Positions 3,965 to 18,246 of a DNA stretch of 18,246 nt are shown here, piece after piece (position 1 is the first letter of the stretch; the number at the start of each line of letters is the position of its first letter). Below the pieces are notes generated by a model. It worked only from the letters and a program-made list of their open reading frames with translations, did not search any database and was not told where the DNA came from. Both the position numbers and the translations under genes were made by a program. Source of the DNA: a virus (taxonomy: Duplodnaviria > Heunggongvirae > Uroviricota > Caudoviricetes); the IMG/VR virus record IMGVR_UViG_2609459834_000002, positions 1-18,246 of that record; one strand, written 5' to 3'.

Positions 3965-3993
3965 ATCCTAACCAGATTTTTTGAAAAATGCAA
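3965..3993 (-). promoter_or_regulatory. Candidate late promoter (pR'-like) with presumed qut region
   Basis: Minus strand: -35 TTGCAT (plus 3988-3993), 17-nt spacer, -10 TAGGAT (plus 3965-3970), directly downstream of the Q stop at 4025. Hexamers are only moderate matches; the position is what supports the call. Confidence 0.3.
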
Positions 3994-4024
3994 GAATCAT
4001 GTCGCTATCTTCGGCGAAAATCAT

Positions 4025-4777
4025 TTATCTCGTCACTTTTCTTAATTGCGCCTCAGCATATGCTTCTTCCTGCCAGCACTTTGTCACCAGTTTATCAATG
4101 ACATCTGCATATCCTTTGTACCACTGATAATCCGTCAGGTCTGGTACCAGCTTCTGGACATGATGCCGCGCCAGTGTGGTTGGTAAACGGCTAAACCGGT
4201 TTCCATTGCAACGCCCACAAATCTTATAAACAGGCATGCCATGAAGCCGGGTTCTTTTTTCATCCAGGACAATACCTTTGCCCTTACACCCTCTGCACGC
4301 TGTGCTGACTTCTCCCTTACCATGACAATGCTGACATAGTTCCTTCACCCACTCTTCCTTGATAACAGATTCCCCGTTTCTGGAGTGTTTCACCACTTCG
4401 CGCAATACATTATGAAATCCCGTACCTGCACAATGCTCACAGCGAGCCTTACTTGCCGCAGATCTGGAATAATCAGCAAAGGCAAAATTCACAAGGTAAG
4501 GAATGATCTGTAGCCGGGTTTCTTCACTCAATTTATTCAATGTCGGGTTATCCAGTGCCATCGCGTAATTGAGCAGACCTTCAATCGCAAACTGAGGATC
4601 CTGAACACCAACTTTTGCCAGGAATAAGGCAAACCCAAGCGGTGCTTTCGACTGCACCATCCCCTGCGCAGCCATCACATCCGTAATCGTTAAACCACCT
4701 GAGCCTGTCGCCGGTGCGTCATCGCTCAATTTTGGAGATTTTGGGGAGTAATATTTTGGTAAGGCTTCAAGGTTCAT
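4025..4777 (-). CDS. Late-gene antitermination protein Q (phage 21/82-like Q family)
   Basis: ATG at 4777 with GGAG RBS 8 nt upstream, after trimming a 14-codon in-frame extension. Contains CxxC...CxxC zinc-binding-like motifs (CEHCAGTG, CQHCHGKG, CRGCKGKG, CGRCNG) and sits immediately upstream of the late promoter and lysis cassette. Confidence 0.85.
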   Translation of the reverse strand: MNLEALPKYYSPKSPKLSDDAPATGSGGLTITDVMAAQGMVQSKAPLGFALFLAKVGVQDPQFAIEGLLNYAMALDNPTLNKLSEETRLQIIPYLVNFAFADYSRSAASKARCEHCAGTGFHNVLREVVKHSRNGESVIKEEWVKELCQHCHGKGEVSTACRGCKGKGIVLDEKRTRLHGMPVYKICGRCNGNRFSRLPTTLARHHVQKLVPDLTDYQWYKGYADVIDKLVTKCWQEEAYAEAQLRKVTR

Positions 4778-4790
4778 GCTCGTTCTCCAC

Positions 4791-5786
4791 TTACGCCAGT
4801 ACGCCAATTGCCAGCGCACGATCGATAAAACGAAATATCAGCTCCAGCTGGGAGCCATACTTCTCTTCAAATGCCACGGTATCCGCATGCAGCTCGTCGT
4901 GATGCTTTCTGCACAAAGGCAACACAAAGAGGTCATGCGCTTTTGTTCCCATTCCACCCTGACCGTGACCTATCAGGTGGTGGGGATCATCAGCAGGCTT
5001 ACCACAACATGCACACGGCTGTGTCTTAACCCAGCGCGTGTACTTTTCATTAACCCAGCGGCGACGTTTTGGGCGTAACATAAAAGACTCCGGCGACTCC
5101 GGATCCACTTTCAGCGCCAGCACCTTTTTCGCTTTATCCTGGATAATGCTGGTGGCAGGAACCGAAGGCACAAGGTCACTCTCCCGGGTGACAGACGGCA
5201 CAACAGGCTTCGGTAATCTCAGTGCCTTACGGGCTGCACTTTCCGGTAAGGCATCCGCCAGATCATTACGAACCAGCCACCAACACAGTTCCGGCATTGT
5301 CACAACGTGACTGTCATCAAAACCGAGATCCCGACGCACAACAGACAACACCCAGCGGGCACAGTTATCCGTTGCCATTGATTCCAGCCGTTCCGTGAAC
5401 TGATCGCGCAGCTGGTTATCGCAGTGCCAGCACAGACGGATTGCGCCCGGAGCGTGTCGCATTGTGGTCATGTTCTCGCTGTGCCAGTCGGAATGAGGCC
5501 ACTGGCAGCCTTTTTCACGAAGTAACCAGCTTTCAAGACATTCCACGCCACCAGCACGACGGATCACTGCCTCATTGCGGAACACGGCCCGAACGGCAGG
5601 ATCATCCGCCAGCGGTTGTGATGCCGCCGGAACGGCACCACTGGCGAAAGATGAATAACGTTCCGGCTCAGGCTCCAGCAGAACACGCCCCTGCATAAAC
5701 AGGGGCATCAGCTCTGAACCTGGCCTGAACAATACGATCCCCATACGCGGGGCAATTTCAGGGGTCAGTAGTGCTCTCACGGTCAC
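4791..5786 (-). CDS. DUF968-family protein (YdfU-like) with HNH-like C-terminal motif
   Basis: 331-codon ORF. C-terminus has CACCGKPADDPHHLIGHGQGGMGTKAHD...CRKHHDELH. Recalled as resembling the E. coli Qin-prophage gene upstream of its Q. The first codon at 5786 is GTG directly after the KilA-N stop, so the start is uncertain. Confidence 0.75.
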   Translation of the reverse strand: MTVRALLTPEIAPRMGIVLFRPGSELMPLFMQGRVLLEPEPERYSSFASGAVPAASQPLADDPAVRAVFRNEAVIRRAGGVECLESWLLREKGCQWPHSDWHSENMTTMRHAPGAIRLCWHCDNQLRDQFTERLESMATDNCARWVLSVVRRDLGFDDSHVVTMPELCWWLVRNDLADALPESAARKALRLPKPVVPSVTRESDLVPSVPATSIIQDKAKKVLALKVDPESPESFMLRPKRRRWVNEKYTRWVKTQPCACCGKPADDPHHLIGHGQGGMGTKAHDLFVLPLCRKHHDELHADTVAFEEKYGSQLELIFRFIDRALAIGVLA

Positions 5787-5787
5787 C

Positions 5788-6597
5788 TCAATGAACGGTA
5801 TCGAGCAGCTTTAACAGCTCAGGGAATCGGGATTCGAAGAAATGCGGCTGCGTCTCGCGCGGATTTGCAGGACTGGTGATGTTCTTGCCGAACATGCAGC
5901 CTTTCGCTGTCAGCGACCAGAATTTTTTGATGTTGTTAATCGCAGTGCGGCTGTATCGTTCACGTTGTTCAACGATCCCCAGCTTCGCCATCTGGTGATA
6001 TGCCTGATTAGCTGTCAGGCGGATACCATACTGCTTCAGCAGTGCACTCAATGATAGCGTGGGGCGGCTTGAGCCATCAGGCGCGTCAGCAGGAGCATCA
6101 ATGGCATAGCGTGGTGCCAGATTCGGTAAGCCAACAGCCTCCTGGAGTTTCTGACAGGCACCAAGCACAGATGAGTTAGACAGGTTTAATTCCCGACGCA
6201 TAAAGTCCAGCAGAATCACACCAGCCTGCATCTTGTCAGCAGCCTGCCCGGATAATTTTTCCGGTGCGCTGGTTACCATATCGAAAGTACGGATCACCTT
6301 CAGATGGAATGACGGGCTGATCCACATTGCATAGGCATACACCAGTTCCTTGCAGACATACGTTCCCCGTTCATTTCCCCCATGAATCACACTCACCGGG
6401 TCAACACCCAAATTCTGGGTGTTGGTCAATTCATGAACAAGCTCAACAGTTTGTTGGCTGGAAAGAAACTTTCCCGGCTCCTTGGTTCTGGCATTTGCAC
6501 CAGATGCTACTGCTGCGCGATGCAGATCGTTCAGGCTGTAACGCCCATAAGCATCACGACGAACTTCAATACCATCAATGACCATCAGATTATTCAT
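5788..6597 (-). CDS. KilA-N domain protein (antirepressor-like), second paralogue
   Basis: ATG at 6597 overlapping the RusA stop. N-terminal MVIDGIEVRRDAYGRYSLNDLHRAAVASG is a KilA-N signature; the 170-aa C-terminal domain is unassigned. Confidence 0.8.
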   Translation of the reverse strand: MNNLMVIDGIEVRRDAYGRYSLNDLHRAAVASGANARTKEPGKFLSSQQTVELVHELTNTQNLGVDPVSVIHGGNERGTYVCKELVYAYAMWISPSFHLKVIRTFDMVTSAPEKLSGQAADKMQAGVILLDFMRRELNLSNSSVLGACQKLQEAVGLPNLAPRYAIDAPADAPDGSSRPTLSLSALLKQYGIRLTANQAYHQMAKLGIVEQRERYSRTAINNIKKFWSLTAKGCMFGKNITSPANPRETQPHFFESRFPELLKLLDTVH

Positions 6598-7006
6598 ACT
6601 TCGTTTCTCCTCTTAATCGGGCGGCTGCCCCCGCCGTTTTCTCGTACTTACTGATAGTGATCTCGACCTTCCCTTCCGGGATAACCGGTCCCCACTCCAC
6701 CAGCATTCTTTTCACCTGACTGTCGTCTTCCCACACACCCGCGTGGGTCAGGGCGTCAAACAGCGCCTTGTTATAGTTGTCCAGATCGCGGATCCGGTTA
6801 TCCGGAGGAAACAACACGATCTCCACTGAAGCAGGTGCCGACGTTGGTTTCGGCAGACGACGTAACTGCTCAACTATTGCTGCGCACGCCGCGCTCTGAA
6901 ATTTTCGCCCCGCCGCGCTTATCAGGCTCTTACCAGCAAATGCCCCTTTATTGGGGTGTCGCCAGTACGTGTTCACGCTGGGCGGGAAAGGCAGGATCAG
7001 CTTCAT
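6590..7006 (-). CDS. rusA: Crossover junction endodeoxyribonuclease RusA (Holliday junction resolvase)
   Basis: 138 aa; N-terminal MKLILPFPPSVNTYW and RDLDNYNKALFDAL are RusA signatures. ATGA-coupled to the upstream gene. Confidence 0.9.
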   Translation of the reverse strand: MKLILPFPPSVNTYWRHPNKGAFAGKSLISAAGRKFQSAACAAIVEQLRRLPKPTSAPASVEIVLFPPDNRIRDLDNYNKALFDALTHAGVWEDDSQVKRMLVEWGPVIPEGKVEITISKYEKTAGAAARLRGETKYE

Positions 7007-7329
7007 ACTTTCAGGCCCCTCTCATGTAACCAGTGGGTTGCACGCAGCCTGGCGTTTTCCTCACCGGCAAGCAGTGAGCGGATAATCCCGACCGCCTCGC
7101 TGTCGTCGTCCTTCACCGCGGTATGAAGAGTGATACCCCGGGCCACGCCACGCTTTATCGTGATGACGCCTTTTTTCTCCAGTGCGCGAAGATGTTCCAC
7201 CGCTGCATTCACTGAACGGTATCCCAGCATGGTTGCCACCTCCTGATTGGTTGGCGGGAAGCCACGTTCTTTCTGGTAAGAAATCAGCATATCCAGCACC
7301 TGCTGCTGGCATTGAGTTAACGTCGTCAT
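7003..7329 (-). CDS. LexA-type N-terminal DNA-binding domain protein (no peptidase domain)
   Basis: 108 aa; LTQCQQQVLDMLISYQKERGFPPTNQEVATMLGYRSVNAAVEHLRALEKKGVI resembles the LexA winged-HTH. No S24 protease motifs. ATGA-coupled on both sides. Confidence 0.6.
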   Translation of the reverse strand: MTTLTQCQQQVLDMLISYQKERGFPPTNQEVATMLGYRSVNAAVEHLRALEKKGVITIKRGVARGITLHTAVKDDDSEAVGIIRSLLAGEENARLRATHWLHERGLKV

Positions 7330-7979
7330 GCCGCCATCTCCCTGACCAGTTTTTCCGCCTGCTGGCGAACCTGCGCCAGAAACGCCTCACCACATGCCTC
7401 AAGTTCATCACGCCCGATGTAGCTGATTGCCGGTCCCTTCCAGGTCTTGTCGAAAACAGCAATAGCACCAGCGAAGAAAGCGCCTGTCGGCACCTGCTTC
7501 TCGTCCTTCGGTATAAACCAGGCAGGCAGTTCAAAACCAATACGCCCGCGAATAAAAGCAATATGATCTGCATCTTCCGGCCACCACACTTCGCTGGTGG
7601 CCGCTTTGATCAGGAAAACATAGCGCCCGCCCTTATCACGCATGGCACTGGCATGTTTCATGATGTAACGCATGCCGGTGATGTATTGCCCCTCATGCTG
7701 ACTGGCGCGGCTGTATGGGGGATTACCAAAGGCAGCACCTTTAAGCTCCGCAAGACGTTCTGACCAGTCATGCGCCAGCGCGTTATCTTCCGCCGTGTAA
7801 TACGCGGCACATTTGGCGTTATCACCGTCAGTAAACAGATCCAGAACAAACGGGCCAAACAAGGTGTTAATTCCCCAGAAAATGTTATCCGGCGTGCGCC
7901 ACTGATCGCCCACTTCCTTCAGTTCATGGGCTGGTTTGTTCCGCAGTTCCACCAGCGCCTGGCAATATTTATTACTCAT
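7326..7979 (-). CDS. Phage DNA N-6-adenine methyltransferase (Dam family)
   Basis: Start assigned to ATG at 7979-7977 (MSNKYCQ...), which overlaps the upstream TAA as TAATG. Contains the catalytic NPPY motif (FGNPPYS). The track start at 8012 is an in-frame upstream extension. Confidence 0.85.
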   Translation of the reverse strand: MSNKYCQALVELRNKPAHELKEVGDQWRTPDNIFWGINTLFGPFVLDLFTDGDNAKCAAYYTAEDNALAHDWSERLAELKGAAFGNPPYSRASQHEGQYITGMRYIMKHASAMRDKGGRYVFLIKAATSEVWWPEDADHIAFIRGRIGFELPAWFIPKDEKQVPTGAFFAGAIAVFDKTWKGPAISYIGRDELEACGEAFLAQVRQQAEKLVREMAA

Positions 7980-8467
7980 TAAGCCCCCACGTAATTCCCT
8001 GAGAGATACCACTCTTCACCCGATGCAGCGCGCTTGCTGCTTTTCCGTAAGCACCGCTCACGACGCGCCAGAAAATTGTTTCGTTCTGGCTGGGAGTGGC
8101 TTTCACGGAATGCCGCCATCCACACGGTTGCAGCACGACGGTATAAGCCCCTTGACTCCAGTTCTTCAGCCTGGCGGGTCAGGCACAAAATCACCCGGGG
8201 GTCGTTAGTGCCGACATAGAACTTGCGCACAGGTCTGGTTTCACGAACTGGTTGTGGTTCCGGCTCCTGCGCTCTCTCAGTCAGGCGCGGGAAATGTCTG
8301 CGTGTATCCCCTTCACAACGGTGAGCCACACGCCCACTCTGACGTAACTTGCTTGCTGACTGCAGAACGCGCTGCCGTGAGTAACCAGCAAAAGCATCCG
8401 CAATGTCTCCGGAAGTACACCCCGGATGGGCTTCAATGAATTTCTGAACTTCATTCAAAAGACTCAT
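7979..8467 (-). CDS. Hypothetical regulator, PerC/ANR-like (tentative)
   Basis: Start at ATG 8467-8465 (the track begins at GTG 8473). C-terminal LESRGLYRRAATVWMAAF...RRERCLRK resembles PerC/ANR-family proteins as recalled; N-terminus looks like a small HTH. Assignment from memory only. Confidence 0.45.
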   Translation of the reverse strand: MSLLNEVQKFIEAHPGCTSGDIADAFAGYSRQRVLQSASKLRQSGRVAHRCEGDTRRHFPRLTERAQEPEPQPVRETRPVRKFYVGTNDPRVILCLTRQAEELESRGLYRRAATVWMAAFRESHSQPERNNFLARRERCLRKSSKRAASGEEWYLSGNYVGA

Positions 8468-8469
8468 GA

Positions 8470-9288
8470 TCACCCCCTGAATCCTGCCGGGATCTGGCTG
8501 TAGTCCACGTTGTCGTAACTGGCTTTGAAGTACGGGTCCTCGCGTCTGGCTGCAGATACCGCAGGAACTTCCCAGGATTCTTCGAAATGACGATCCGGAC
8601 CAAAGAACGTGACAGCCTGTTTCACAAATTGTGTGCCGCTGTTACCCATCGCAGATACCCAGCCCGCGTAGCGTTTCACACCTTCCAGCATGGTTTCGGG
8701 GTTTACTCCCTCATTCAAACGGGCTTTCCAGGCTTTGAAGGCTGCAGATTTTGAATTGCCACCAGCACGTTTGGGATATGCCAGCCATGCCTGCTCAAAC
8801 TCCGGAGAGTATTCCGGTCGGTTTGAACGAACTCGCACGGACTCATCAACTGATGCACCAACAGCTATTGGTTCATTGACTGGTTCTTTGACTGGTTCAA
8901 AAGAGTGACTGGTTCTGGGTGAATCTCCTGCACTACCCCCTGGTGCAACTCCTGCACTACCTGGTGAATTTGCTGCACCAGATAGTGAATTATTTGCACT
9001 ACCCCCTAGTGAATCTCCTGCACCATCCAGATGAAGGAGATAGATATTACTTGAGTTACCTTTTTCACCTTTCCGGGTGACTTTTTTTACCAGCCCGGAC
9101 TCACAAAGGGCCGCAATATGATTCATCACAGAACGTTTGCTAATCTCGCACTGGTCAGCAATATGCTGATAGCTGGGCCAGCACTCACCCTGATCGCTGG
9201 CATTATCAGCCAGCTTGATCAGAACCAGTTTTCGCAATGGATTACCCACTCGAATTTTCATCGCTTTAACCATCAGCTCCATACTCAT
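8470..9288 (-). CDS. Phage replication initiation protein (N-terminal HTH domain, repeat linker, C-terminal domain)
   Basis: 272 aa. N-terminal HTH (PLRKLVLIKLADNASDQGECWPSYQHIADQCEISKRSVMNHIAALCESGLV), a Gly/Ser/Ala-rich linker encoded by tandem DNA repeats, and a basic C-terminal domain. Sits at the lambda O position after the cro/CII-like genes. Confidence 0.7.
   Translation of the reverse strand: MSMELMVKAMKIRVGNPLRKLVLIKLADNASDQGECWPSYQHIADQCEISKRSVMNHIAALCESGLVKKVTRKGEKGNSSNIYLLHLDGAGDSLGGSANNSLSGAANSPGSAGVAPGGSAGDSPRTSHSFEPVKEPVNEPIAVGASVDESVRVRSNRPEYSPEFEQAWLAYPKRAGGNSKSAAFKAWKARLNEGVNPETMLEGVKRYAGWVSAMGNSGTQFVKQAVTFFGPDRHFEESWEVPAVSAARREDPYFKASYDNVDYSQIPAGFRG
8877..9028. repeat. Iteron-like tandem repeat array inside the replication gene (candidate phage origin)
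   Basis: Five tandem 21-24-bp repeats at 8917-8940, 8941-8961, 8962-8982, 8983-9006 and 9007-9028, consensus tGGTGAATctcCTGCACTACCccc. Three copies of TGACTGGTTC at 8877, 8889 and 8907. A moderately AT-rich stretch follows at 9029-9090. Confidence 0.5.
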
Positions 9289-9509
9289 GCTGCACCTCCG
9301 AGATGCTTCATGTTTTTTCCGGAGCGAAAGGCTATAAGCGGCATACTGACGCGGTAATTACGGCCCAGCGGTTCACAAACCACCTTCTGACATTCACGGT
9401 CAACCAGGCTAACACGTAGAACATGCCCTGCAGGCGTGGTGTACCACTGACCGGGGCGAGGACAACGGAAAGTCTGATTGGTAAATCGTTTGAAAATATT
9501 CCGGATCAT
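9285..9509 (-). CDS. Hypothetical protein (74 aa), translationally coupled between Rha-like and replication genes
   Basis: ATG at 9509 overlaps the Rha stop (ATGA) and its stop overlaps the replication-gene ATG at 9288 (ATGA). No recognised domain. Confidence 0.5.
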   Translation of the reverse strand: MIRNIFKRFTNQTFRCPRPGQWYTTPAGHVLRVSLVDRECQKVVCEPLGRNYRVSMPLIAFRSGKNMKHLGGAA

Positions 9510-10063
9510 TTGCGCCCCCTTACCTCTGAAGAGTTCAGCGACGAATGAATAAGACGGGCAAGAAATGCCGCATCGTTAATTCGGTCATACAGACTTACAG
9601 CCAGAGGTGATTCAGCTTTTTCCAGCATGGGATAAAGCTGCTGCAACCAGACCTGATGAATTGATGAAATGTAGGAATAGAGAACGCTGGCGTTATGTGC
9701 AACGTCGCTCGGTACAGAGGGCTTTGAAAGCTGTTTCTCCATCTGGTTAAAGGCATTGATGTATGCCTCTTTGAACTGGGCAGCACGTTTCCCCGTGAAA
9801 CCCATAGCAAGAAACGCAAAGCCGTCGCGGGTTATTTGATAGCAAGGAAGTTTGCGAGTACCGCCGTTGGGCTGGCGTACCAAAATTGATGTCTCCGCAA
9901 AATTGCGGGCACAAAACTCTGGAGAACAATCCAAAATGCGGATCTTTTTCAGAACATCGTCATGACGTTTAGAGAAGAAGTCAGCAACAGCCAAAGAAGA
10001 TGTAACAGCCTGACCATCAACGATGGCAATTTCAGGTTGAGAGAGGGTTGGGAGAGTAGTCAT
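9506..10063 (-). CDS. Phage regulatory protein, Rha family
   Basis: Product from the internal ATG at 10063-10061 (MTTLPTLSQPEIAIVDGQAVTSSLAVADFFSKRHDDVLKKIRIL...YQITRDGFAFLAMGFTGKRAAQFKEAYINAF) matches the Rha N-terminal domain. The track ORF extends in frame to 10669; that extension is treated separately in findings. Confidence 0.75.
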   Translation of the reverse strand: MTTLPTLSQPEIAIVDGQAVTSSLAVADFFSKRHDDVLKKIRILDCSPEFCARNFAETSILVRQPNGGTRKLPCYQITRDGFAFLAMGFTGKRAAQFKEAYINAFNQMEKQLSKPSVPSDVAHNASVLYSYISSIHQVWLQQLYPMLEKAESPLAVSLYDRINDAAFLARLIHSSLNSSEVRGRK

Positions 10064-10665
10064 GGTGACAGCCCCGGTAGTCAGTTTTTTAGAAAACTCA
10101 CCACATGGGACGCCAATCACAGAGGTGGTGAGACGTACAGGGTTGGCGTTACCGGAGACTACCGAACCCGGCCCGACCGAAGTCGGCCCTGTACGCCCCA
10201 CCATAATTTGGGCGTAGCAATGCTCATGACACGAAAAAACCGCATGAGCGCGGTTATGCTCAGTAATCAATTTCAGGACGCCAATCCCGGCACCCGTTTT
10301 ATAAGGTGCCTGAACAGTGTAACGTCCCGGAATGGCAGAATCAATGTGCTGGTGGTCCTTCACACTCAACAAAATCACGCCTGAATTTCCACAAAGGACT
10401 AAAGCACTCATGCGGGTAGTCTTTGCGAAGATAGATAACGCGCTGTGTTTCTGGCTCCCAACGAATAACATGAACATAAAGTCCTCTTCCGTCACGAAAC
10501 CAGCGGTTAAGTTCCTGCACAACTCGCCCCCCACAGTCAGGTAAAGTTCTCTGTGGTTACTTACAGCCAGGTGATTTGGTAATCTGCATTCATGCCGTAA
10601 CAACAGGTGTTCAGCGACGCTGACCACCTGTTGTTGCGACAAACGGTTATTTGCCGTTAAACTGT

Positions 10666-11229
10666 TCATGCGTTAGTTTCTCCACAGACACAAAACGCCA
10701 CGACGCCCGGAGCTGCACACTCGCGGGCGTCACTCTTTTCTGGAGCGCAAAAGATTTTGTAGACCAGTGCTGCATGCTCCTGGAGCTTCGAAATTGACAG
10801 ATACAACTCATCATTAATTGCTGTCTGCTCGTGTGGCTCCACTACCCCATCTTCGATTGCCGAACGAATCTGCTTTGAGTAACTCCCGATCTGTTCGATG
10901 ACTTCCAGCAGGCGCTGGTTTATATCGGCGTTCTCTACTTCCTCAATTTCAGGAAGCGATACAAACACCCCACCAGCAGACTGTGCGACAGCATCCGCAA
11001 TGTAGTGAGTGCCAGCCGCGCGCTGTAAAATCATTGCCCATCCCAGCGGGAAAATCTGATCGCCATCTGCACGAAGGCGGTTGAATAAAGCGTTCTCTGT
11101 TACATCCAGCCACTCAGCAGCTTCAGCGTAACCCCCCGGCAACGCCGCGATAGTTTTTCTGACAGCTTTCACGTACCACTCAGGCTGTTTTTCTACTTTC
11201 CAGTGATGCTTACCCACGGTTAGCCTCAT
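10666..11229 (-). CDS. CII-like / YdaT-like regulatory protein (tentative)
   Basis: 187-codon ORF immediately downstream of the cro-like gene on the same strand, the CII position. No strong RBS at ATG 11229; an in-frame GTG at 11217 has GAGG upstream. Family assignment is by position and weak recollection. Confidence 0.45.
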   Translation of the reverse strand: MRLTVGKHHWKVEKQPEWYVKAVRKTIAALPGGYAEAAEWLDVTENALFNRLRADGDQIFPLGWAMILQRAAGTHYIADAVAQSAGGVFVSLPEIEEVENADINQRLLEVIEQIGSYSKQIRSAIEDGVVEPHEQTAINDELYLSISKLQEHAALVYKIFCAPEKSDARECAAPGVVAFCVCGETNA

Positions 11230-11260
11230 CGTTCTGTGGTTAAAAATTGAAGGTGTTCTG

Positions 11261-11461
11261 TTAATCTTTCGGATAGATATCCGGTCTTAAGTCAGATTTC
11301 GTAATTGCACCTGACGTGCATTGCTCAAGTTTTTTAGCCAGCACAAAACTGGCTTTTTTATAACCATTGAAAACCAGCCGTAAGTAGCCTGGTGTTGAGC
11401 CAACTTTTCCGGCCAACTCGCCCTGCTGTTCTTTGGTTAAAGAGTCCCAATACGCTTTCAT
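11261..11461 (-). CDS. Cro-like HTH regulator (YdaS-like)
   Basis: ATG at 11461-11459 with GGAGG RBS about 10 nt upstream. The 66-aa product MKAYWDSLTKEQQGELAGKVGSTPGYLRLVFNGYKKAS...LRPDIYP is divergent from the repressor gene. The 167-aa track ORF is an upstream extension running through the operator region. Confidence 0.7.
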   Translation of the reverse strand: MKAYWDSLTKEQQGELAGKVGSTPGYLRLVFNGYKKASFVLAKKLEQCTSGAITKSDLRPDIYPKD

Positions 11462-11464
11462 ACA

Positions 11465-11536
11465 ATATGTACCTCCGATATACATATTACATGATTGAGA
11501 TGAACCTTCAAGATACTTGTACCCTATCGGTACAAA
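11465..11536. promoter_or_regulatory. Immunity operator/promoter region (OR-like; pR leftward, pRM-like rightward)
   Basis: Two operator-like inverted repeats: 11465-11487 ATATGTA-N9-TACATAT and 11518-11536 TTGTACC-N5-GGTACAA. Candidate pR on minus: -35 TTGAAG (plus 11504-11509) and -10 TAATAT (plus 11482-11487). The cI-like ATG at 11552 has no convincing RBS, suggesting a leaderless or weakly initiated mRNA. Confidence 0.5.
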
Positions 11537-11551
11537 GGTTTTAATTTCGTT

Positions 11552-12226
11552 ATGAAAACAGTCCATGACATCCGGCGGTCTAACGCCAGAAAACTGAGAG
11601 ATGGTGTTGGCGGGAATTCTTCCTTTGCCACCATGATTGATCGCGAGCCAACCCAGACCAGCAGGTTTATGGGGGATGGTGCTACTAAAAATATCGGTGA
11701 CAGCATGGCACGGCACATCGAAAAATGTTTCGACCTGCCTGTCGGATGGCTTGATCAAGAACACCAGACAACAAACATCACAAAAAAACCTGATGTTTCA
11801 ATCACTAACAAACAAATAACGTTAGTCCCTGTCATATCATGGGTACAGGCCGGAGCATGGAAAGAAGTTGGCTATTCTGAGGTTGATTTGAGCACAGCAG
11901 AAACTTATCCCTGCCCTGTACCCTGTGGCGAAATGACTTATATCTTGCGGGTGATTGGTGATTCAATGATTGATGAGTACCGCCCGGGAGACATGATTTT
12001 TGTTGATCCCGAAGTCCCTGCCTGCCACGGTGACGACGTTATTGCATTGATGCACGATACAGGCGAAACCACCTTTAAGCGGTTGATAGAAGATGGAACA
12101 CAGCGTTATCTCAAAGCATTAAACCCAAACTGGCCTGAACCTTACATTAAGATCAACGGTAATTGCTCTATAATTGGCACAGTGATTTTCTCAGGAAAAC
12201 CAAGAAGATACAAAATAAAGGCCTAA
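11552..12226 (+). CDS. CI-like prophage repressor (HTH plus LexA-like S24 peptidase domain)
   Basis: 224 aa. C-terminal domain has the S24 autocleavage-fold motifs (VIGDSMIDEYRPGDMIFVDPE). Divergent from the cro-like gene and followed by a strong terminator. Confidence 0.85.
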   Translation: MKTVHDIRRSNARKLRDGVGGNSSFATMIDREPTQTSRFMGDGATKNIGDSMARHIEKCFDLPVGWLDQEHQTTNITKKPDVSITNKQITLVPVISWVQAGAWKEVGYSEVDLSTAETYPCPVPCGEMTYILRVIGDSMIDEYRPGDMIFVDPEVPACHGDDVIALMHDTGETTFKRLIEDGTQRYLKALNPNWPEPYIKINGNCSIIGTVIFSGKPRRYKIKA

Positions 12227-12239
12227 TCAATATTTATAA

Positions 12240-12260
12240 CCTGCTTCGGCAGGTTTTTTT
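12240..12260 (+). terminator. Rho-independent terminator after the repressor gene
   Basis: CCTGC-TTCG-GCAGG hairpin followed by T7 (12254-12260), 14 nt after the cI-like stop. Confidence 0.7.
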
Positions 12261-12264
12261 ATAC

Positions 12265-12297
12265 TTGACAATGTACCCTCGAGATACATAATGTATC
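12265..12297 (+). promoter_or_regulatory. pL-like promoter with overlapping operator (OL-like)
   Basis: -35 TTGACA at 12265-12270, 17-nt spacer, -10 ATAATG at 12288-12293. The spacer holds a 19-bp operator-like site ATGTACC-N5-GATACAT (12271-12289), overlapped by the perfect palindrome GATACAT-A-ATGTATC (12283-12297). Confidence 0.5.
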
Positions 12298-12575
12298 TAA
12301 AAGAAACATGTCACAGGCAAGATTAAACAAAATTTGGTTGTAACACGGCGTATGGCACATGCGTCGTTAGCGGTCTGGGGACGTTAAAGGGGACAATCCA
12401 CTCCTTGCTCGGGCAAACAAACCAGGTAGCCGGAATGTGCAAGTCAATGATGATGCTGATAAGACGCCTAACCAGCGTGGCGGTTCGGTTTGACACCTGG
12501 GAAGAGACCAGGGTGCAACGATGAGGGCATTTATGGAACCGCGACAAAGTGTGGTGCCGTAACTGGCTAAGTGCT

Positions 12576-12596
12576 CTCAGCGTTGTGGTGAATGCG
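12576..12596 (+). repeat. 21-bp direct repeat, copy 1 (CTCAGCGTTGTGGTGAATGCG), followed by a GC hairpin
   Basis: Differs from the copy at 13204-13224 by one base. Followed by hairpin GCGCA-GGCTGA-TGCGC at 12594-12609. Lies in the roughly 450-nt leader between the pL-like promoter and the first small ORF. Confidence 0.6.
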
Positions 12597-12739
12597 CAGG
12601 CTGATGCGCGAAAGACATTGCAGCTATTGCGGAAAAGAGCTGTTCGGCGGGGCAATTAAACGCCCGTATCTGGAGGTTAAAGAACAAAATGAAAGTCCAG
12701 ATTTTAAACAATAACTGTGAAGTCGTTTGGGCGTAAAAC

Positions 12740-12946
12740 ATGACCGCGCGTAGACCAAGGGAGGAAAAAGTGGGAATAGTTAGAAATCAAGCAGATATAT
12801 TGAAAATCAGCTCTGAATTGCTTGGAGTTTTGAAAAGTGAGCTCACCGCACATGGCATCGAGCCCACTGACGAAAATTTAAGTTGGGTTTTGTCGATTAT
12901 TCAACAATCACTCAAGCCCAGCCTCAGCAAACTTTTTATCGAGTAG
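12740..12946 (+). CDS. Hypothetical small protein (68 aa) at the N-gene position; possible N-like factor or moron product
   Basis: ATG at 12740 lies 3 nt after the stop of a 15-codon upstream ORF (12689-12736, MKVQILNNNCEVVWA, GGAGG at 12672-12676). An in-frame GTG at 12770 has a strong GGGAGG RBS. N-terminus MTARRPREEK is mildly Arg-rich. Sits in a visibly AT-rich island. Confidence 0.4.
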   Translation: MTARRPREEKVGIVRNQADILKISSELLGVLKSELTAHGIEPTDENLSWVLSIIQQSLKPSLSKLFIE

Positions 12947-13099
12947 TGCTTCGAACTTATCGTAAAGCTTGCTTATGTCGTCTATCGGGTTTTCTGACGT
13001 ACTGTAATTTTTATCTGATGTCATGGCAGCAGTCTGATATGCAGTGTGAGTCTTAACCGATAGTTGGAATAAATAAAGAATTTTTTCTTCTTTGGTCAT
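12908..13099 (-). CDS. Hypothetical small protein (63 aa), convergent with and overlapping the 12740-12946 ORF
   Basis: ATG at 13099-13097 with AAGGA RBS 7 nt upstream. Product MTKEEKILYLFQLSVKTHTAYQ...DKKFAEAGLE. Its 3' end overlaps the convergent ORF by 39 nt. No family recognised. Confidence 0.4.
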   Translation of the reverse strand: MTKEEKILYLFQLSVKTHTAYQTAAMTSDKNYSTSENPIDDISKLYDKFEALLDKKFAEAGLE

Positions 13100-13203
13100 G
13101 ACTATTTCCTTCTTGGCTATATGAAAACACCAAGATACCACCGAGCCTGAAGTGGTGAAAAGACAGGCACATAACAGCTAAGTATTTTCAACCAGAGAGA
13201 ATC

Positions 13204-13224
13204 CTTAGCGTTGTGGTGAATGCG
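13204..13224 (+). repeat. 21-bp direct repeat, copy 2 (CTTAGCGTTGTGGTGAATGCG), followed by a short GC hairpin
   Basis: Near-identical to 12576-12596 (20 of 21). Followed by TGCG-GCTCAG-CGCA at 13221-13234. Marks the right boundary of the AT-rich island. Confidence 0.6.
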
Positions 13225-13355
13225 GCTCAGCGCACGCGGGTTAAGGTTGAGGCTGACAGTCGACCTTCTGTGGATACCCACCCGCCTGGTGTGCAACCTT
13301 CGCCAGGCACCGGGAGGCACCCGGCACCACAACTTTATGCTGTGTGTAGTCCTAG

Positions 13356-13400
13356 CGGTACCAGCTTGTACCATTGCTTCCGGCTGGTACCGTCCTTTTT
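13356..13400 (+). terminator. Terminator-like hairpin (tL1-like candidate) upstream of rdgC
   Basis: Perfect 10-bp inverted repeat CGGTACCAGC (13356-13365) / GCTGGTACCG (13383-13392) with a 17-nt loop, followed by TCCTTTTT (13393-13400). The loop is long for a canonical intrinsic terminator. Confidence 0.4.
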
Positions 13401-13565
13401 ACAAAACAGAGAAGAGCATCACCGGACGACGGGCTCATAACCCAATCCACCCGGGCAAAAAGAAAGCGGTCTCTGCAAGCCGCCGACCAATGCAGGTGCC
13501 CTTCTCTGTTGTGTATGGAGAAACTAACTTTTTAGCGCCGGTGCAGAGGCGTTGAGGAACCGAGA

Positions 13566-14483
13566 ATGAACAATCCGTTTTTCAAAAATATGTTGGTGTA
13601 TCGCATTAGTCGCGATTTCACCATCAACCAGGAAGAGCTGGAACAGCAGCTTGAACTATTTCGCTTCACTCCATGCGGTAGCCAGGATATGGCAAAAACC
13701 GGTTGGGTATCACCACTTGGTCAGCTGTCAGATCGCTTGCATCACACTGTCAATAATCAAGTGTTGTTGGTTATTCGCCGGGAAGAAAAAATACTGCCAT
13801 CTCCTGTCATTGCTGAAGAACTGCGCAAGCGTGTGGCGCGTCTGGAATCCGATCAGGGGCGTCGCCTCAAAAAAACTGAGAAAGATTCGCTGCGTGATGA
13901 AGTGTTGCACTCCCTGCTTCCTCGGGCGTTCTCCAAAAACTCGACTGTTAGTTTGTGGATCAACGTCACAGACGGTCTGATCATGGTTGATACAGCCAGC
14001 GCTAAACGTGCCGAAGACTCACTGGCCCTGCTTCGTAAAACTCTCGGTTCTCTCCCGGTGGTACCGCTGACTATGGAAACGCCGATCGAACTAACTATTA
14101 CCGACTGGGTTCGTTCCGGTAGTGCCCCTGCTGGCTTTAGCCTGGGTGATGAAGCCGAACTGAAAGCTATTCTTGTAGATGGCGGTATTGGACGCTTTAA
14201 AAAACAGACTTTGGTCAGTGACGAAATTCATGTGCATCTGGAAGCTGGCAAAGTAGTTACAAAGCTGTCTATCGACTGGCAACAGCGCATTCAGTTCGTT
14301 CTTTGCGATGACGGCAGCATCAAACGCCTTAAGTTCTCTAATGAGATTACAGAACAAAACGACGATATCTACCGTGATGATGCGGCTCAGCGGTTCGACG
14401 CTGACTTTGTTCTAATGACCGGCGAGCTTATCTCTCTCATTAACGGATTAACAACCTCTCTCGGCGGCGAAGCCAAGCGATAA
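13566..14483 (+). CDS. rdgC: Recombination-associated protein RdgC (prophage-encoded homologue)
   Basis: 305 aa with GAGGA RBS 8 nt upstream. Matches recalled E. coli RdgC along its length ([123 protein letters not shown]). Confidence 0.9.
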
Positions 14484-14562
14484 ACACCAGGCAGCAATTA
14501 CCCCATAAGCATGGGTTGGGTTGCTGCACTCCAAATCTGGCGAAGGTTGGTTCGGATGGCAG

Positions 14563-14817
14563 ATGAATCATATCGAATTTATTGAGAAGAACGTCAGGGA
14601 AATCCTTATAAAACAAGGCTTTTCTTCTTCAGTAGCGCAGGGGGGGGCATGGCAAGCGATTGATTTATATAAGCGCATGTCACAAGCCAGTAAAAAGGGT
14701 GCAATTTTTGATGACGTGATGAGGCATGCGAAAGCATGGGCAGATAAACAGGTTTCGAAAACTGAAGTCACGAAAAGTAAACGCAATCAACCTAAAAACC
14801 AAGGTGGTCTGTTTTAA
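14563..14817 (+). CDS. Hypothetical protein (84 aa)
   Basis: Track ORF 14521-14817 begins at TTG; trimmed to ATG 14563 (MNHIEFIEKNV...). Weak RBS. Basic C-terminus. No family recognised. Confidence 0.45.
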   Translation: MNHIEFIEKNVREILIKQGFSSSVAQGGAWQAIDLYKRMSQASKKGAIFDDVMRHAKAWADKQVSKTEVTKSKRNQPKNQGGLF

Positions 14818-14869
14818 ATATTCAGGCCAATAAGTTTGCGCGGTGCAGCGCGCCAATATGGAGAAAACC

Positions 14870-15196
14870 ATGAGCTACATTCAGACATTATCCGGTAAAA
14901 AATTTAACTACCTGACCGCCACAATCGACGATATCGATGTAGAGGATATCGCGACGGCGCTTTCCAACATCTGTCGATTCGCTGGGCATCTCCCAGAGTT
15001 CTACAGCGTGGCTCAGCACTCTGTGCTTGTAAGCCAGATTGTGCCGCCAGAGTTCGCCTTTGAAGCGCTGAAATTCGATGACTTCCAGATTGTCCACTAT
15101 GGCGGTTCTGAGGATTACGCGAAAGGTTATATCGACTGCCAAAACAACTACAACAAAGCTCTGACCGCCGCTGGCATTGGCGTGAAGGGGAAGTGA
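14870..15196 (+). CDS. HD-domain-like protein (YfbR-type 5'-nucleotidase fold), short and with the HD dyad altered; possibly degenerate
   Basis: ATG at 14870 with GGAG RBS 6 nt upstream (MSYIQTLSGKKF...). Motif CRFAGHLPEFYSVAQHS resembles the first metal-binding region of HD hydrolases, but the expected L-H-D-A motif reads EALKFDD (His replaced by Phe). The protein stops at 108 aa, against roughly 180-200 for intact HD domains. Confidence 0.45.
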   Translation: MSYIQTLSGKKFNYLTATIDDIDVEDIATALSNICRFAGHLPEFYSVAQHSVLVSQIVPPEFAFEALKFDDFQIVHYGGSEDYAKGYIDCQNNYNKALTAAGIGVKGK

Positions 15197-15197
15197 G

Positions 15198-15672
15198 ATG
15201 GCGGAGCAAACCATTTTAGACATGTGCTGCGGTTCCCGCATGTTCTGGTTCAACAAGCAGGACACCCGCGCCGTGTTCACTGATATCCGCGCCGAAGAGC
15301 ACGAGCTGTGCGACGGTCGCCGCCTGGTTATCAGTCCAGACCTGATTGCCGACTTTCGTTCACTGCCGTTCGCTGATTCTTCTTTTCCGGTTGTGGTGTT
15401 TGACCCACCGCACTTGGAGCGCGTTGGCCAGTCTGCCTGGATGGGTAAAAAATACGGGCGACTGAACAAAAAAAACGTGGCGCTCTGACTTACGCGCCGG
15501 TTTCAAAGAAGCGTTTCGGGTGCTGTGGCCACGCGGCGTACTTATTTTCAAATGGAACGAAACACAAATCCCAGTGAGCCAGATTCTGGCGCTTACAGAT
15601 GTGAAACCTGCAATTGGCCAGCGTACCGGGAAGAACGATAAAACCCACTGGATTATTTTTGTGAAGGACTAA
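15198..15672 (+). CDS. Small SAM-dependent DNA amino-methyltransferase (DPPH motif) interrupted by a +1 frameshift at an A8 tract
   Basis: Frame 0 (15198-15488, 96 aa) carries motif I LDMCCGS and motif IV FDPPH and stops at TGA 15486-15488. The +1 frame is open from 15466 to the TAA at 15670-15672, ending 3 nt before the next ATG. The only region open in both frames (15466-15485) contains the A8 run at 15468-15475. One fewer A would give a single product of about 156 aa. Confidence 0.6.
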
Positions 15673-15675
15673 CTC

Positions 15676-16230
15676 ATGACAACTAAACACCCGGCGCACG
15701 GTCCTTTATCCCTCGATCGCCTGCACCAGATACGCGAACACCTGCAGCATGATACCCAGTACTCAAACGGCGGGAACAGAGCTTATATTCTCGCTGATAT
15801 GTTGAAGGTGATTGATGAGGTGCTGGCATCGAGGAACGCAGAGCCAGTATTGCCAGATGAAAAGCCGATGCCAGAAGCGTCGAAAATGCATGCAATAGAC
15901 GCTGTAGCTGCAATCGCAGAGGTCAGAGGATGGAACGCCTGCCGCGCCGTCATGCTTAAGGCTGGCAACTCTCCGGTAACTCAGGATGGTTACGTGCTGG
16001 TCCCGAAGAAACTAACCGCTGAGAACGGCGCAAAGAGTGTGCTGTCCGGTGAGTTTTCAGAAACGAAATTTATAAACTGCCCAGAGTGTTTTGGTGATGA
16101 TGATTGCGAAACCTGCGACGGCAGCGGAAGAATTGAAATCACCGTTCCTGTCACATGGACGACCATCAAAGCTATTTGGGCTAAAGGTGTCGAGCATTTC
16201 GCAGCAGCACCGCAGCAGGAGAATGTATAA
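15676..16230 (+). CDS. Hypothetical protein with C-terminal CxxC...CxxCxGxG zinc-finger-like motif
   Basis: 184 aa, tightly packed between neighbours. Motif CPECFGDDDCETCDGSG resembles a DnaJ-type zinc-finger repeat. Otherwise unassigned. Confidence 0.6.
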   Translation: MTTKHPAHGPLSLDRLHQIREHLQHDTQYSNGGNRAYILADMLKVIDEVLASRNAEPVLPDEKPMPEASKMHAIDAVAAIAEVRGWNACRAVMLKAGNSPVTQDGYVLVPKKLTAENGAKSVLSGEFSETKFINCPECFGDDDCETCDGSGRIEITVPVTWTTIKAIWAKGVEHFAAAPQQENV

Positions 16231-16804
16231 CGTGAACAATTTAATGATCGACCTTGAGTCCATGGGCAAAAAACCGAATGCCCCTATTGTCTCCATTGGT
16301 GCCGTATTCTTCGATCCGCAAAGCGGTGATCTTGGTCAGGAGTTTTACACCGCCGTTAATCTTGAAAGCGCTATGGAGCAGGGAGCTGTGCCGGATGGTG
16401 ACACTATTCTGTGGTGGTTAAGACAAAGCTCAGAAGCACGATCAGCAATCTGTGTTGATGATGCGATGCCGATATCGTCTGCCCTATCTGAACTGAGCCA
16501 TTTCATTAATCGGCATTCTGATAACCCAAAATATTTAAAAGTTTGGGGCAATGGAGCTACTTTCGACAACGTTATATTGCGCGGCGCATATGAGCGCGCC
16601 GGCCAGCTTTGCCCGTGGCAATTTTGGAACGATCACGACGTCAGAACCATCGTCACATTAGGCAGAGTTGTGGGTTTCGATCCAAAGCGAGATATGCCAT
16701 TCGATGGGGTTGCACATAACGCACTGGCCGATGCGCGACATCAAGCAAAATACGTGTCCGCGATCTGGCAGAAGTTGATTCCGGCCACCAGCAGAGACCT
16801 GTAA
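16223..16804 (+). CDS. DnaQ-like 3'-5' exonuclease (DEDD family)
   Basis: Exo I motif LMIDLESMG, later H-x4-D-type motif (GVAHNALADARHQAKY), about 190 aa. Start is ambiguous among ATG 16223, GTG 16232 (best-spaced relative to AGGAG at 16217-16221) and ATG 16244. Track ORF 16091-16804 is an in-frame upstream extension. Confidence 0.8.
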   Translation: MYNVNNLMIDLESMGKKPNAPIVSIGAVFFDPQSGDLGQEFYTAVNLESAMEQGAVPDGDTILWWLRQSSEARSAICVDDAMPISSALSELSHFINRHSDNPKYLKVWGNGATFDNVILRGAYERAGQLCPWQFWNDHDVRTIVTLGRVVGFDPKRDMPFDGVAHNALADARHQAKYVSAIWQKLIPATSRDL

Positions 16805-16842
16805 TTTTCCCTGGGTGCAGCCAGGTTGTATGGAGAATGTCT

Positions 16843-17115
16843 ATGAATACTTTGTTTTTACTTATGGCTGAGTTCAACACGCCTAACATCGAGCTGTCAG
16901 CTGTATGCCAAAAGTATTTCGGTATGAGCCCTAACACAGCAGAAGCGAAAGCAAATGCCTGTCAGTTGCCGATCCCGACTTATCGTGTAGGAACATCACA
17001 GAAAGCGAAGCGCTGCATCAACATTCAGGATCTTGCTGAGTATATAGACCAGCGGCGTGAAGAAGGCAGAATTGAGTGGGAAAGGGTCAGAACGAACAAA
17101 CAGAAAAATAGTTGA
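16843..17115 (+). CDS. PrtN-like small DNA-binding protein (tentative)
   Basis: Start at second ATG 16843 (GGAG 7 nt upstream). MNTLFLLMAEF...CQKYFGMSPNTAEAKANACQLPIPTYRVGTSQKAKRCINIQDLAEYID resembles the pyocin-activator PrtN family as recalled. Followed by a terminator. Confidence 0.5.
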   Translation: MNTLFLLMAEFNTPNIELSAVCQKYFGMSPNTAEAKANACQLPIPTYRVGTSQKAKRCINIQDLAEYIDQRREEGRIEWERVRTNKQKNS

Positions 17116-17141
17116 GTTTCACACAGATAAAAAAAGAAAAA

Positions 17142-17157
17142 CCCGCCAGATGGCGGG
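17142..17157. terminator. Rho-independent terminator between convergent genes (strong for minus strand, weaker for plus)
   Basis: CCCGCC-AGAT-GGCGGG hairpin. The minus-strand RNA is followed by a U-rich run (plus-strand A-rich 17128-17141); the plus strand has only CTTT after the stem. Confidence 0.6.
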
Positions 17158-17180
17158 CTTTCAAAAAGCACCAGCTATGA

Positions 17181-17354
17181 TCATGCTGCCTTGCGACGAC
17201 GAAGCTTACCCTGCTGCTCTTTACCAGAGACAATAGCGTGAGTGAACGCGTTAGGAGCAGCCTTCATCAGAACTTCAACAGCAGCACCCATACCTGCGAA
17301 TGCTTTCATTGTGTCGAACTTAACCTGTGGCTTGGTTGCTTTTTGATCTTTCAT
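17181..17354 (-). CDS. Hypothetical small basic protein (57 aa), absent from the ORF track
   Basis: ATG at 17354-17352 with GGGAG RBS 8 nt upstream; stop at 17183-17181. Product MKDQKATKPQVKFDTMKAFAGMGAAVEVLMKAAPNAFTHAIVSGKEQQGKLRRRKAA. Terminator about 20 nt downstream. Confidence 0.5.
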   Translation of the reverse strand: MKDQKATKPQVKFDTMKAFAGMGAAVEVLMKAAPNAFTHAIVSGKEQQGKLRRRKAA

Positions 17355-17549
17355 AGAAAACTCCCGAGACGATAAGGGCGCCTCTAACCTCTTAGTTAAA
17401 GTTAGCTTGTCCAGCCAACTTGTGCCAATCGGTTCCTCCGATTGGTGACATCGTTTTCAGTAGTGCGAATACATAACGACTGTCCCAGATGTACCTTTAA
17501 GGTAATCCGGATGGATATCCTACAATCTGTAGACACTCGGCGTCTACAT

Positions 17550-18083
17550 CTATTGTGCGAATTTAAGAAATGTCTCTTGCAGATTATCTGTGGCTGTAGA
17601 CATTACGTAGCCACACTTTTCCATACAAAAACCGAACGACTCATAAAATGGCCGCAATTCAGGAACTGGTTCAATGATTTGAACAACCTCACACTCGACA
17701 GCCTTACAAAAAACAAAGGCACTCATTAGTGTGAGCAAAACCATTCGCCCTTTTAGTGGGTGTGATTCATCTTCCCTTGAGAACCTTTCAACAATATGGA
17801 TGCGAAAGATTTTATCTTCAACCCCGTAAACACAAATTGCCGCCCCTGAAGGAATCCCCTGCACTACTCCTTGCTGAACAAGTTTGATGCAAAATTCATA
17901 CTTGTCATCAGAATTACCATAGGCACCGAGCATATAGTCCCACTCAAGCTCGCCATAACCACCACAGAGGATCTTGTAATCTTCATCACTGATCGGGCCA
18001 ACTGCGAGAGGCAACCCCACATGGTCAATAACTAACTGAATGTTGTTACGAACAGATTGACCTATCTCGTCTAAAGTGAGCAT
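17550..18083 (-). CDS. Hypothetical protein, possibly GNAT-like (acyl-CoA N-acyltransferase) fold; function unassigned
   Basis: 177 aa with GAGAGG RBS and a perfect TATAAT (plus 18117-18122, read on minus) upstream. C-terminal ELRPFYESFGF resembles the GNAT beta-bulge/C-terminal region, but no clear Q/RxxGxG/A acetyl-CoA motif was seen. Confidence 0.45.
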   Translation of the reverse strand: MLTLDEIGQSVRNNIQLVIDHVGLPLAVGPISDEDYKILCGGYGELEWDYMLGAYGNSDDKYEFCIKLVQQGVVQGIPSGAAICVYGVEDKIFRIHIVERFSREDESHPLKGRMVLLTLMSAFVFCKAVECEVVQIIEPVPELRPFYESFGFCMEKCGYVMSTATDNLQETFLKFAQ

Positions 18084-18246
18084 TAGAGCCTCTCAAGCGG
18101 AACGGCGAAAGACCCCATTATACCTATTCCCGCCATGCAATGCCTGGTAAGAGTTGCGTATTAAATTAAAAACATCGGGTCCCCAATAGGCCCCCATAAA
18201 ACACACAACACCGCTATTTCTCTGTACAATCCGTCCTATCGAGCAT

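Follow-up and report, generated by a model that had tools for sequence, protein, structure and literature searches.

A convergent pair of overlapping small genes, one behind a portable putative leader, near the immunity region of an SfII/e14-type lambdoid prophage

The 18,246-nucleotide (nt) stretch of viral DNA analyzed here (IMG/VR record IMGVR_UViG_2609459834_000002, positions 1 to 18,246; "the window") carries an E. coli/Shigella lambdoid prophage of the SfII/SfV/e14/CPS-53 type. Between its early-left promoter, pL, and the early-left genes lie two small convergent open reading frames (ORFs), A on the plus strand and B on the minus strand, which share their 3' ends. The pair and the elements in front of B are as follows (window positions; SD, Shine-Dalgarno sequence; aa, amino acids).

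12770 to 12946, plus strand: gene A, 58 aa, GTG start, SD GGAGG at 12760-12764, predicted two-helix hairpin.
13099 to 12908, minus strand: gene B, 63 aa, SD AAGGA at 13107-13111 (reverse complement), predicted two-helix hairpin.
12908 to 12946, both strands: dual-coding 3' overlap of A and B, 39 nt, in codon-antisense register.
13111 to 13135, minus strand: hairpin 2 (TCTTGG/CCAAGA), between the invariant element and the SD of B, with covarying arms.
13135 to 13168, minus strand: invariant 34-nt element GCCTGTCTTTTCACCACTTCAGGCTCGGTGGTAT (B sense), with a hairpin ACCAC/GTGGT; putative promoter or leader of B.

A preliminary description of this DNA had a plus ORF ending at 12946 meet a minus ORF running from 13099 to 12908, with a 39-nt overlap and a good ribosome-binding site on each. 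This geometry is correct, the SD lying 5 nt from the start of A and 7 nt from the start of B. Within the overlap, the TAG stop codon of A lies opposite a Leu codon (CTA) of B, and the TGA stop codon of B lies opposite a Ser codon (TCA) of A. Intact homologous pairs overlap by 39, 27, 45, 33, or 15 nt, each a multiple of three, indicating that the reading register is maintained among them; at the sole 46-nt overlap the B allele is frameshifted. The G+C content of the module is 0.38 to 0.43, compared with 0.50 to 0.58 in its flanks. Two further points of that description carry less weight. The length of the ORFs, offered as an argument against chance, is weak evidence, given 82 ORFs of at least 60 aa in the window. 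The 10-bp palindrome GTGAGCTCAC is indeed present at 12837-12846, where it forms the codons Ser-Glu-Leu of A, but we attribute it to chance and rule it out as a functional site, because perfect 10-bp palindromes are rarer in the window than chance predicts (7 observed versus 17.7 ± 4.2 in shuffled sequence) and this one is not preserved among relatives.

On the evidence of their sequences, both ORFs are genuine genes that encode proteins. We compared nine diverged modules in an ungapped alignment, counting only the nonoverlapping part of each gene. In its own frame, A has a ratio of nonsynonymous to synonymous differences (pN/pS) of 0.36 (pS, 0.60) and no stop codons, while the other frames contain 11 to 40 stops; B has a pN/pS of 0.21 (pS, 0.67) and no stops, against 24 to 28 in the other frames. 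The low own-frame pN/pS, together with the absence of stops from these frames and their abundance in the others, argues that both ORFs encode proteins. The true start of A is the GTG at 12770 rather than the ATG at 12740, which opens a 68-aa ORF; we place it there because homologues begin at the same position with ATG and are 58 or 59 aa long. An apparent additional nucleotide-level constraint on A codons 33 to 46 (12866-12907), seen in the first nine sequences, was gone after Klebsiella-type sequences were added.

Gene A is left unannotated by RefSeq/PGAP and by the authors of the SfII genome, who annotate B alone, as would be expected if only B were a gene and A a frame kept open by chance or by constraint on the 3' end of B. 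We consider this explanation very improbable. Outside B lie 138 of the 177 nt of A, the part in which the coding signal above was measured, and both its SD and its start codon are conserved across relatives. Other gene callers do predict A, although it is called on only about 100 contigs, compared with at least 1,000 on which B is recorded. A matches phrog_15476, a family of unknown function, over its full length (E = 7e-50, positions 1 to 68 of 68). Further, a search with the A profile finds its core of about 45 residues again as the C-terminal module of proteins of 92 to 201 aa, fused to three different N-terminal parts, one of which is a ClpX-type zinc finger.

B corresponds to WP_000159356.1 (SfII_36), recorded under the name "hypothetical protein." It matches phrog_2605, also of unknown function (E = 1e-33, positions 1 to 63 of 69). 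Its family comprises 56 homologue clusters across the Enterobacterales, all named "hypothetical," in which SD, ATG, and length are kept; the genera are Escherichia, Salmonella, Citrobacter, Klebsiella, Enterobacter, Kluyvera, Atlantibacter, Buttiauxella, Edwardsiella (including one sequenced phage), and Serratia (Serratia symbiotica). Protein searches first gave copies of A and B down to 64% identity; later copies of A reach about 35 to 40%, and the B-family partners of fused A domains are 37 to 41% identical to B. AlphaFold2 (AF2) models predict two helices in each protein, at residues 7-27 and 34-53 of A (mean model confidence [pLDDT], 74) and 3-28 and 38-59 of B (pLDDT, 76). Both are acidic (isoelectric points of 5.2 and 5.0) and without a membrane segment, the maximal 19-residue Kyte-Doolittle mean being 0.80 for A and 0.46 for B. 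In several alleles a frameshifted B stands beside an intact A (L185, L186, L226, P0008, and P0011); these frameshifts adjoin homopolymers and may be sequencing errors.

Conservation of the pair across prophages, which the preliminary description had proposed as a check, bears it out: both ORFs are conserved as proteins, and the convergent 3' overlap is kept across relatives. Loci were collected independently via B, via A, and via the leader element, and a hidden Markov model scan for both proteins found 125 among them with an A-domain gene and a B-family gene together and none with only one of the two. These represent about 20 distinct lineages from several Enterobacterales genera, and the genes are always convergent, with overlaps of 15 to 46 nt. 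The convergent overlapping pair was first met in contigs of Kluyvera, Klebsiella, and Atlantibacter and in metagenomic prophages, and homologues are called independently in Kluyvera, Klebsiella, Atlantibacter, Edwardsiella, and Serratia. A scan of genome contigs with the B profile yielded one locus only, in Kluyvera. Each fused A-domain gene whose context we examined faces a convergent B-family gene with an overlap of 15 to 45 nt, even where gene callers had missed B. Of 5,426 complete E. coli genomes, 63 carry a near-identical pair, and SfII is the only catalogued phage that does. To judge from these genomes, A and B are one co-inherited cassette in a hypervariable accessory locus between pL and the early-left genes.

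Could the two instead be accessory genes with separate functions, one an early gene and the other a moron, that happen to adjoin, with the overlap due to compaction and the co-occurrence to hitchhiking? The locus is mosaic, cassettes and parts of cassettes recombine, other occupants of the slot are unrelated proteins, and 39 shared nt would hinder separation by recombination. Nevertheless, we judge this unlikely, since the pairing outlasts divergence to about 35 to 40% identity, changes in overlap from 15 to 45 nt, and three A-domain fusions. In neighboring cassette types, by contrast, partners are reshuffled: YmfJ-like and "RLALELASRVS" A-type genes do occur with differing B-type partners.

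The approximately 65 nt upstream of B are conserved far beyond the genes themselves. In B sense, the order is GCCTGTCTTTTCACCACTTCAGGCTCGGTGGTAT, hairpin, AAGGA, ATG. The 34-nt element is present as a single copy in the window (zero expected) and, in a scan of IMG/VR that used 21 specified bases, in at least 119 contigs. Its conservation starts sharply at the first G; the sequence upstream is unrelated between cassettes, and in some it is where the next early-left gene begins on the opposite strand. An ATG follows the element at a fixed distance, and the proteins encoded there belong to more than 20 unrelated families of 55 to 163 aa. Almost all of these proteins are without annotation. Searches of ten other cassette proteins against Pfam and NCBIfam returned no more than hints of zinc ribbons and two family names, "YmfI family" and "ECs1072 family." Element, hairpin, and SD together appear to serve as a leader that is portable among many unrelated small genes. 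An extended -10-like sequence, TGgTATCTT, lies at 13132-13140 and reads TGgTATnCT across cassettes, with T, A, T, and the final T invariant. Since all sequence upstream of the element varies, a promoter of B would have to lie within it.

Between the element and the SD, the arms of hairpin 2 differ from cassette to cassette yet stay complementary (CTTGG/CCAAG, GCTGG/CCAGC, ACTGG/CCAGT, CCTTTT/AAAAGG, and CCTCT/AGAGG). At least 12 arm sequences occur, and the 448 pairs comprise 438 Watson-Crick, 3 G-U, and 7 A-C pairs. The mean perfect helix is 5.9 bp, compared with 3.8 ± 0.17 bp for a mismatched-partner control, and none of 200 controls reached the observed value. Hairpin 2 is annotated as a terminator in SfV, but we rejected this role because no T-run follows it on either strand. 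The element has no match in Rfam at E ≤ 1, and by-eye checks for a LexA box, a sigma-54 promoter, Chi (GCTGGTGG versus GCTCGGTGG), or a lambda boxB gave no fit. We found no ymfI transcription start site in the Cappable-seq or SMRT-Cappable-seq supplements (ymfI is the gene behind the element in E. coli K-12; see below). Nor did we find, in the open-access papers searched, the invariant leader described or the pL-proximal slot recognized as a hotspot for cassettes.

A leader common to many cassettes whatever their protein, convergent geometry, and the lack of a predicted intrinsic terminator downstream of B on the minus strand would all suit a B unit that acts mainly as RNA. Such a countertranscript (compare P22 sar/sas and lambda OOP) would oppose the pL leader and the mRNA of A and so lower early-left expression, and the peptide would be secondary. 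Purifying selection on B at the protein level, the retention of SD, ATG, and length in its homologue clusters, and the presence of an ORF at a fixed distance in every element cassette make this improbable.

Upstream, the pair is preceded by the repressor gene and pL; downstream, it is followed by an RNA-like region and the first long early-left gene.

11552 to 12226, plus strand: cI-type repressor gene with an S24 peptidase domain, YmfK/CohE-like (Pfam Peptidase_S24, E = 1.5e-26; ymfK/LexA family in relatives).
12238 to 12255, plus strand: intrinsic terminator after cI, a 7-bp stem and then a T-run, annotated in SfII and SfV too.
12265 to 12292, plus strand: pL-type early-left promoter, TTGACA and CATAAT with a 16-nt spacer, 11 of 12 positions matching.
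12272 to 12288 and 12292 to 12308, plus strand: cI operators over pL, 17-bp motif TGTAYC-N6-RTACA.
12326 to 12757, plus strand: pL leader, consisting of a noncoding block common to many lambdoid phages and remnants of another cassette.
13180 to 13402, plus strand: STnc100-like prophage small RNA (sRNA) region (Rfam RF02076, 43.2 bits versus a gathering threshold of 47, E = 1.2e-7).
13566 to 14483, plus strand: rdgC (Pfam RdgC, E = 2e-113), the first long early-left gene past the cassette.

Elsewhere in the window, the operator motif occurs only in the cro/cI intergenic region (11468-84 and 11518-34; 0.61 matches expected by chance). Because the same operators overlap 12265-12292 and recur only at this right operator region (OR), we identify this promoter as a repressor-controlled pL. 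A lies in sense orientation about 480 nt downstream of it, and B is antisense to the pL unit. Terminator prediction over 12100-13700 found only the cI terminator, upstream of pL, and none between pL and A or inside the module.

Several other features surround the pair. The noncoding block at 12326-12667 (plus strand) is 90 to 100% identical to Stx2 phages, mEp460, cdtI, and Klebsiella phages. A 21-nt repeat, CTYAGCGTTGTGGTGAATGCG, occurs both at 12576-12596 in the pL leader and at 13204-13224 in the 5' part of the STnc100-like region, and the block may be a second, diverged STnc100-family sRNA or a recombination linker that bounds cassettes. The STnc100-like region itself begins 12 nt after the invariant element, and in relatives PGAP places a "frameshifted hypothetical protein" over it. 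Cassette remnants fill 12592-12757: a 40-aa ORF with the sequence CSYCG, which is the leader of an SfV-orf33-type cassette, and, at 12690-12737, a 15-codon stump of an SfV-orf33-like gene (MKVQILNN...), whose intact version follows the A/B cassette in locus L017. Just upstream of rdgC is a 19-nt inverted repeat (13400-13418/13497-13515; 89% complementary, arms 78 nt apart). In several relatives, pL is separated from the first early-left gene by a conserved, structured-looking pL leader, AACAGGCAGGACGCCCACGAAGTAGCC...CCGG... (L018 3585-3700, K-12 e14; also L007, L011, and L015), which does not occur in this window. On the other side of cI, Rfam gathering-level matches to C4 antisense RNA (10121-10208, minus strand, 82 bits) and isrK (10233-10309, minus strand, 60 bits) fall inside a 387-aa ORF (9506..10669; Pfam Phage_ASH and Phage_pRha). 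This looks like a P1/Gifsy-type isrK-C4-antirepressor module at 10121-10309, and the 5' part of the ORF, possibly with its "Ash" match, may really be RNA genes. In a Serratia symbiotica prophage, a SieB-family superinfection-exclusion gene (PF14163; L139 1823-2314) stands directly upstream of an A/B-type cassette, on the B strand; bona fide exclusion genes therefore use this neighborhood.

SfV, e14, and further relatives carry different cassettes in the slot, and the presence of a given cassette varies between related phages. In many element cassettes, the 3' end of an ORF in the pL direction overlaps the antisense gene by 4 to 83 nt, as in the following, which all have support from annotation or gene callers.

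e14 ymfJ/ymfI: convergent pair with a 63-nt overlap.
Pair in locus L009: 108 and 69 aa.
Pair in locus L138: 77 and 77 aa.
SfV orf33: with an unannotated 81-aa partner.

The closest parallel in arrangement is the e14 element of E. coli K-12. As at our locus, cI (ymfK) is followed by a terminator, a pL with the same type of operator, and a sense gene facing an antisense gene, and the identical invariant element lies upstream of ymfI with compensated hairpin arms (GCTGG/CCAGC). The proteins differ: YmfJ and YmfI are larger (102 and 113 aa) and unrelated to A and B, and BLASTP of A and B against them gave no alignment. Published data show ymfJ upregulated by a log2 of 4 to 4.8 late in the SOS response; the YmfJ protein is detected as well, and the change in ymfI does not exceed +2 (PMC11002266). 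Further, ymfJ belongs to the YmfT iModulon with intE, xisE, and ymfH, and ymfI does not (PMC12132413). The antisense interference that the preliminary description expected from a convergent overlap stands as a reasonable consequence of it, and an RNA-seq-based catalogue of excludons includes ymfI-ymfJ as a convergent case (PMC12288877). These K-12 data fit opposite regulation of the A and B positions; because the K-12 proteins share no homology with A and B, the data speak for the slot and not for the A and B proteins.

A "ClpX C4-type zinc finger protein" (WP_001083098.1; L017 2499-2702 and L138 2501-2779) is a further early-left gene in the A position with a convergent partner of its own. 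The zinc finger is fused to the A domain in one metagenomic prophage (P0035), and the protein may be a decoy of the ClpX N-domain.

These observations lead us to a model of the A/B cassette as a lysogeny-versus-lysis switch. In the repressed prophage, B would be expressed from its own promoter inside the element, with TGgTATnCT as the extended -10. Upon induction or infection, strong transcription from pL would express A and run head-on through B, silencing it by transcription collision and antisense pairing, as in an excludon. The acidic two-helix A and B proteins, co-evolving, might bind each other (predictions cover the single-chain folds), and A would neutralize a B activity that benefits the lysogen but would hamper lytic growth of the phage itself. 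That activity would most plausibly be exclusion of competing phages, or another host-modulating activity, and the outcome would be a pair for exclusion and escape resembling P22 sieB-esc-sas. The genes and their wiring, that is, two real genes with A on the pL unit and B antisense behind a leader, we consider highly probable. Antagonism of B by A, with exclusion as its purpose, we regard as rather unlikely when taken by itself; the whole chain, an excludon cassette of cognate partners in which pL-driven A counteracts B, is a serious possibility that we put forward tentatively.

Several observations weigh against this model. A and B have no match in Pfam or NCBIfam and none in PADLOC-DB v2 at E ≤ 0.1, so that they bear no likeness to exclusion, defense, or toxin-antitoxin (TA) proteins. 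Foldseek searches of the AF2 models against the PDB gave nothing for B and only matches with E > 1 for A, two-helix hairpins being uninformative in such searches. Support from expression comes from the nonhomologous e14 proteins in the same slot, and strict co-occurrence may be due in part to physical linkage through the shared 39 nt. The hexamers of the B promoter match at 8 of 12 positions, below the promoter-scan threshold, and a transcript starting about 7 nt past TATNCT would begin inside hairpin 2, which makes promoter and hairpin hard to reconcile. Finally, the ratio of G-U to A-C pairs (3 versus 7) gives no strand on which hairpin 2 acts.

Three kinds of known system come close to this cassette. 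Excludons are neighbors on opposite strands with overlapping transcripts, and A and B have this structure, because coding regions that overlap by 39 nt require the full mRNAs to overlap; as in excludons, convergent overlap predicts mutually exclusive expression via interference and RNase III cleavage. In the classical cases from Listeria the overlap reportedly involves long untranslated regions. In the A/B cassette it is coding sequence that is shared, both genes are coupled to the repressor switch of a phage, and B, the antisense partner, has a portable invariant leader. In the sieB-esc-sas system of P22 and lambda, SieB is said to be a membrane protein, Esc an in-frame internal product, and sas a small RNA. 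Its logic is similar to the one proposed here: in the lysogen, an accessory gene near pL is transcribed from a promoter of its own, and the phage is protected from it by a second product and an antisense RNA that arise once its early-left region is active; A and B, in contrast, are two separate soluble proteins on opposite strands without sequence similarity to that system. Lambdoid morons and cI-adjacent accessory genes reportedly include rexAB, HK022 nun, and HK97 gp15. Like these, the cassette is a low-G+C insert by the immunity region that varies between similar phages and whose expression may be autonomous; unlike them, it has no predicted terminator of its own, B runs against the flanking operon and always has a sense-strand partner, and its leader is common to unrelated cassettes.

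The preliminary description had also pointed to toxin-antitoxin and exclusion modules. Either is a plausible candidate function, but the likeness to known TA systems did not hold up. Type II systems consist of two co-directional genes in one autoregulated operon and belong to recognized folds or families, whereas A and B are convergent on opposite strands in every lineage and match no toxin, antitoxin, or defense family in the searches above. Type I systems have a small hydrophobic toxin and a noncoding antisense RNA as antitoxin; neither A nor B is hydrophobic, and both strands encode proteins under purifying selection. Type I loci such as par/Fst RNAI-RNAII, txpA-RatA, and bsrG-SR4 are convergent units with overlapping 3' ends, often borne on prophages. 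A and B share this geometry but are conserved, acidic, soluble proteins.

With that geometry in mind, an addiction-like system of opposite polarity might be considered, in which A, like lambda Kil, acts early in the lytic phase and damages the host, while B, made in the lysogen, supplies a protein antidote and, through its transcript, an antisense brake on leaky pL expression. Such a system would have the same architecture and account equally for the co-inheritance data. The alleles with a frameshifted B beside an intact A suggest that some genomes, at least, can do without B, and we count them on both sides, since an antidote role for B predicts counter-selection of just such alleles, with the caveat on sequencing errors given above. 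Together with the lack of hydrophobicity and of TA or PADLOC matches, this leads us to rate the opposite polarity as quite unlikely.

Viewed in one way, A and B are yet another pair of prophage "hypotheticals." What is unusual is their strict pairing, the dual-coding overlap, the unannotated gene, and a leader that links them to K-12 ymfI/ymfJ. A is a real, conserved gene that RefSeq omits in all 63 complete E. coli genomes with the pair. The pair exemplifies an arrangement that recurs at the immunity region in a common family of prophages: a portable invariant leader sets very diverse small genes against the early-left operon, and a partner on the sense strand usually overlaps them. Element and hairpin form a candidate new cis-regulatory motif absent from Rfam, and the uncharacterized ymfI and ymfJ of K-12 provide a directly testable model. 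If B-type genes are effectors in the lysogen and A-type genes their neutralizers in lytic growth, the slot would be an unexplored reservoir of proteins for phage-phage competition or host modulation. More speculatively, and with considerable doubt, leader and convergent partner may define an undescribed class of switch-coupled two-protein cassettes, a hypervariable lysogeny-on B-type effector and a pL-encoded A-type neutralizer in a head-on toggle. Were this so, the pL-proximal slot of e14/SfII-type prophages would be an exclusion/anti-exclusion hotspot like the defense hotspots of P2 and P4, with more than 20 unexplored families.

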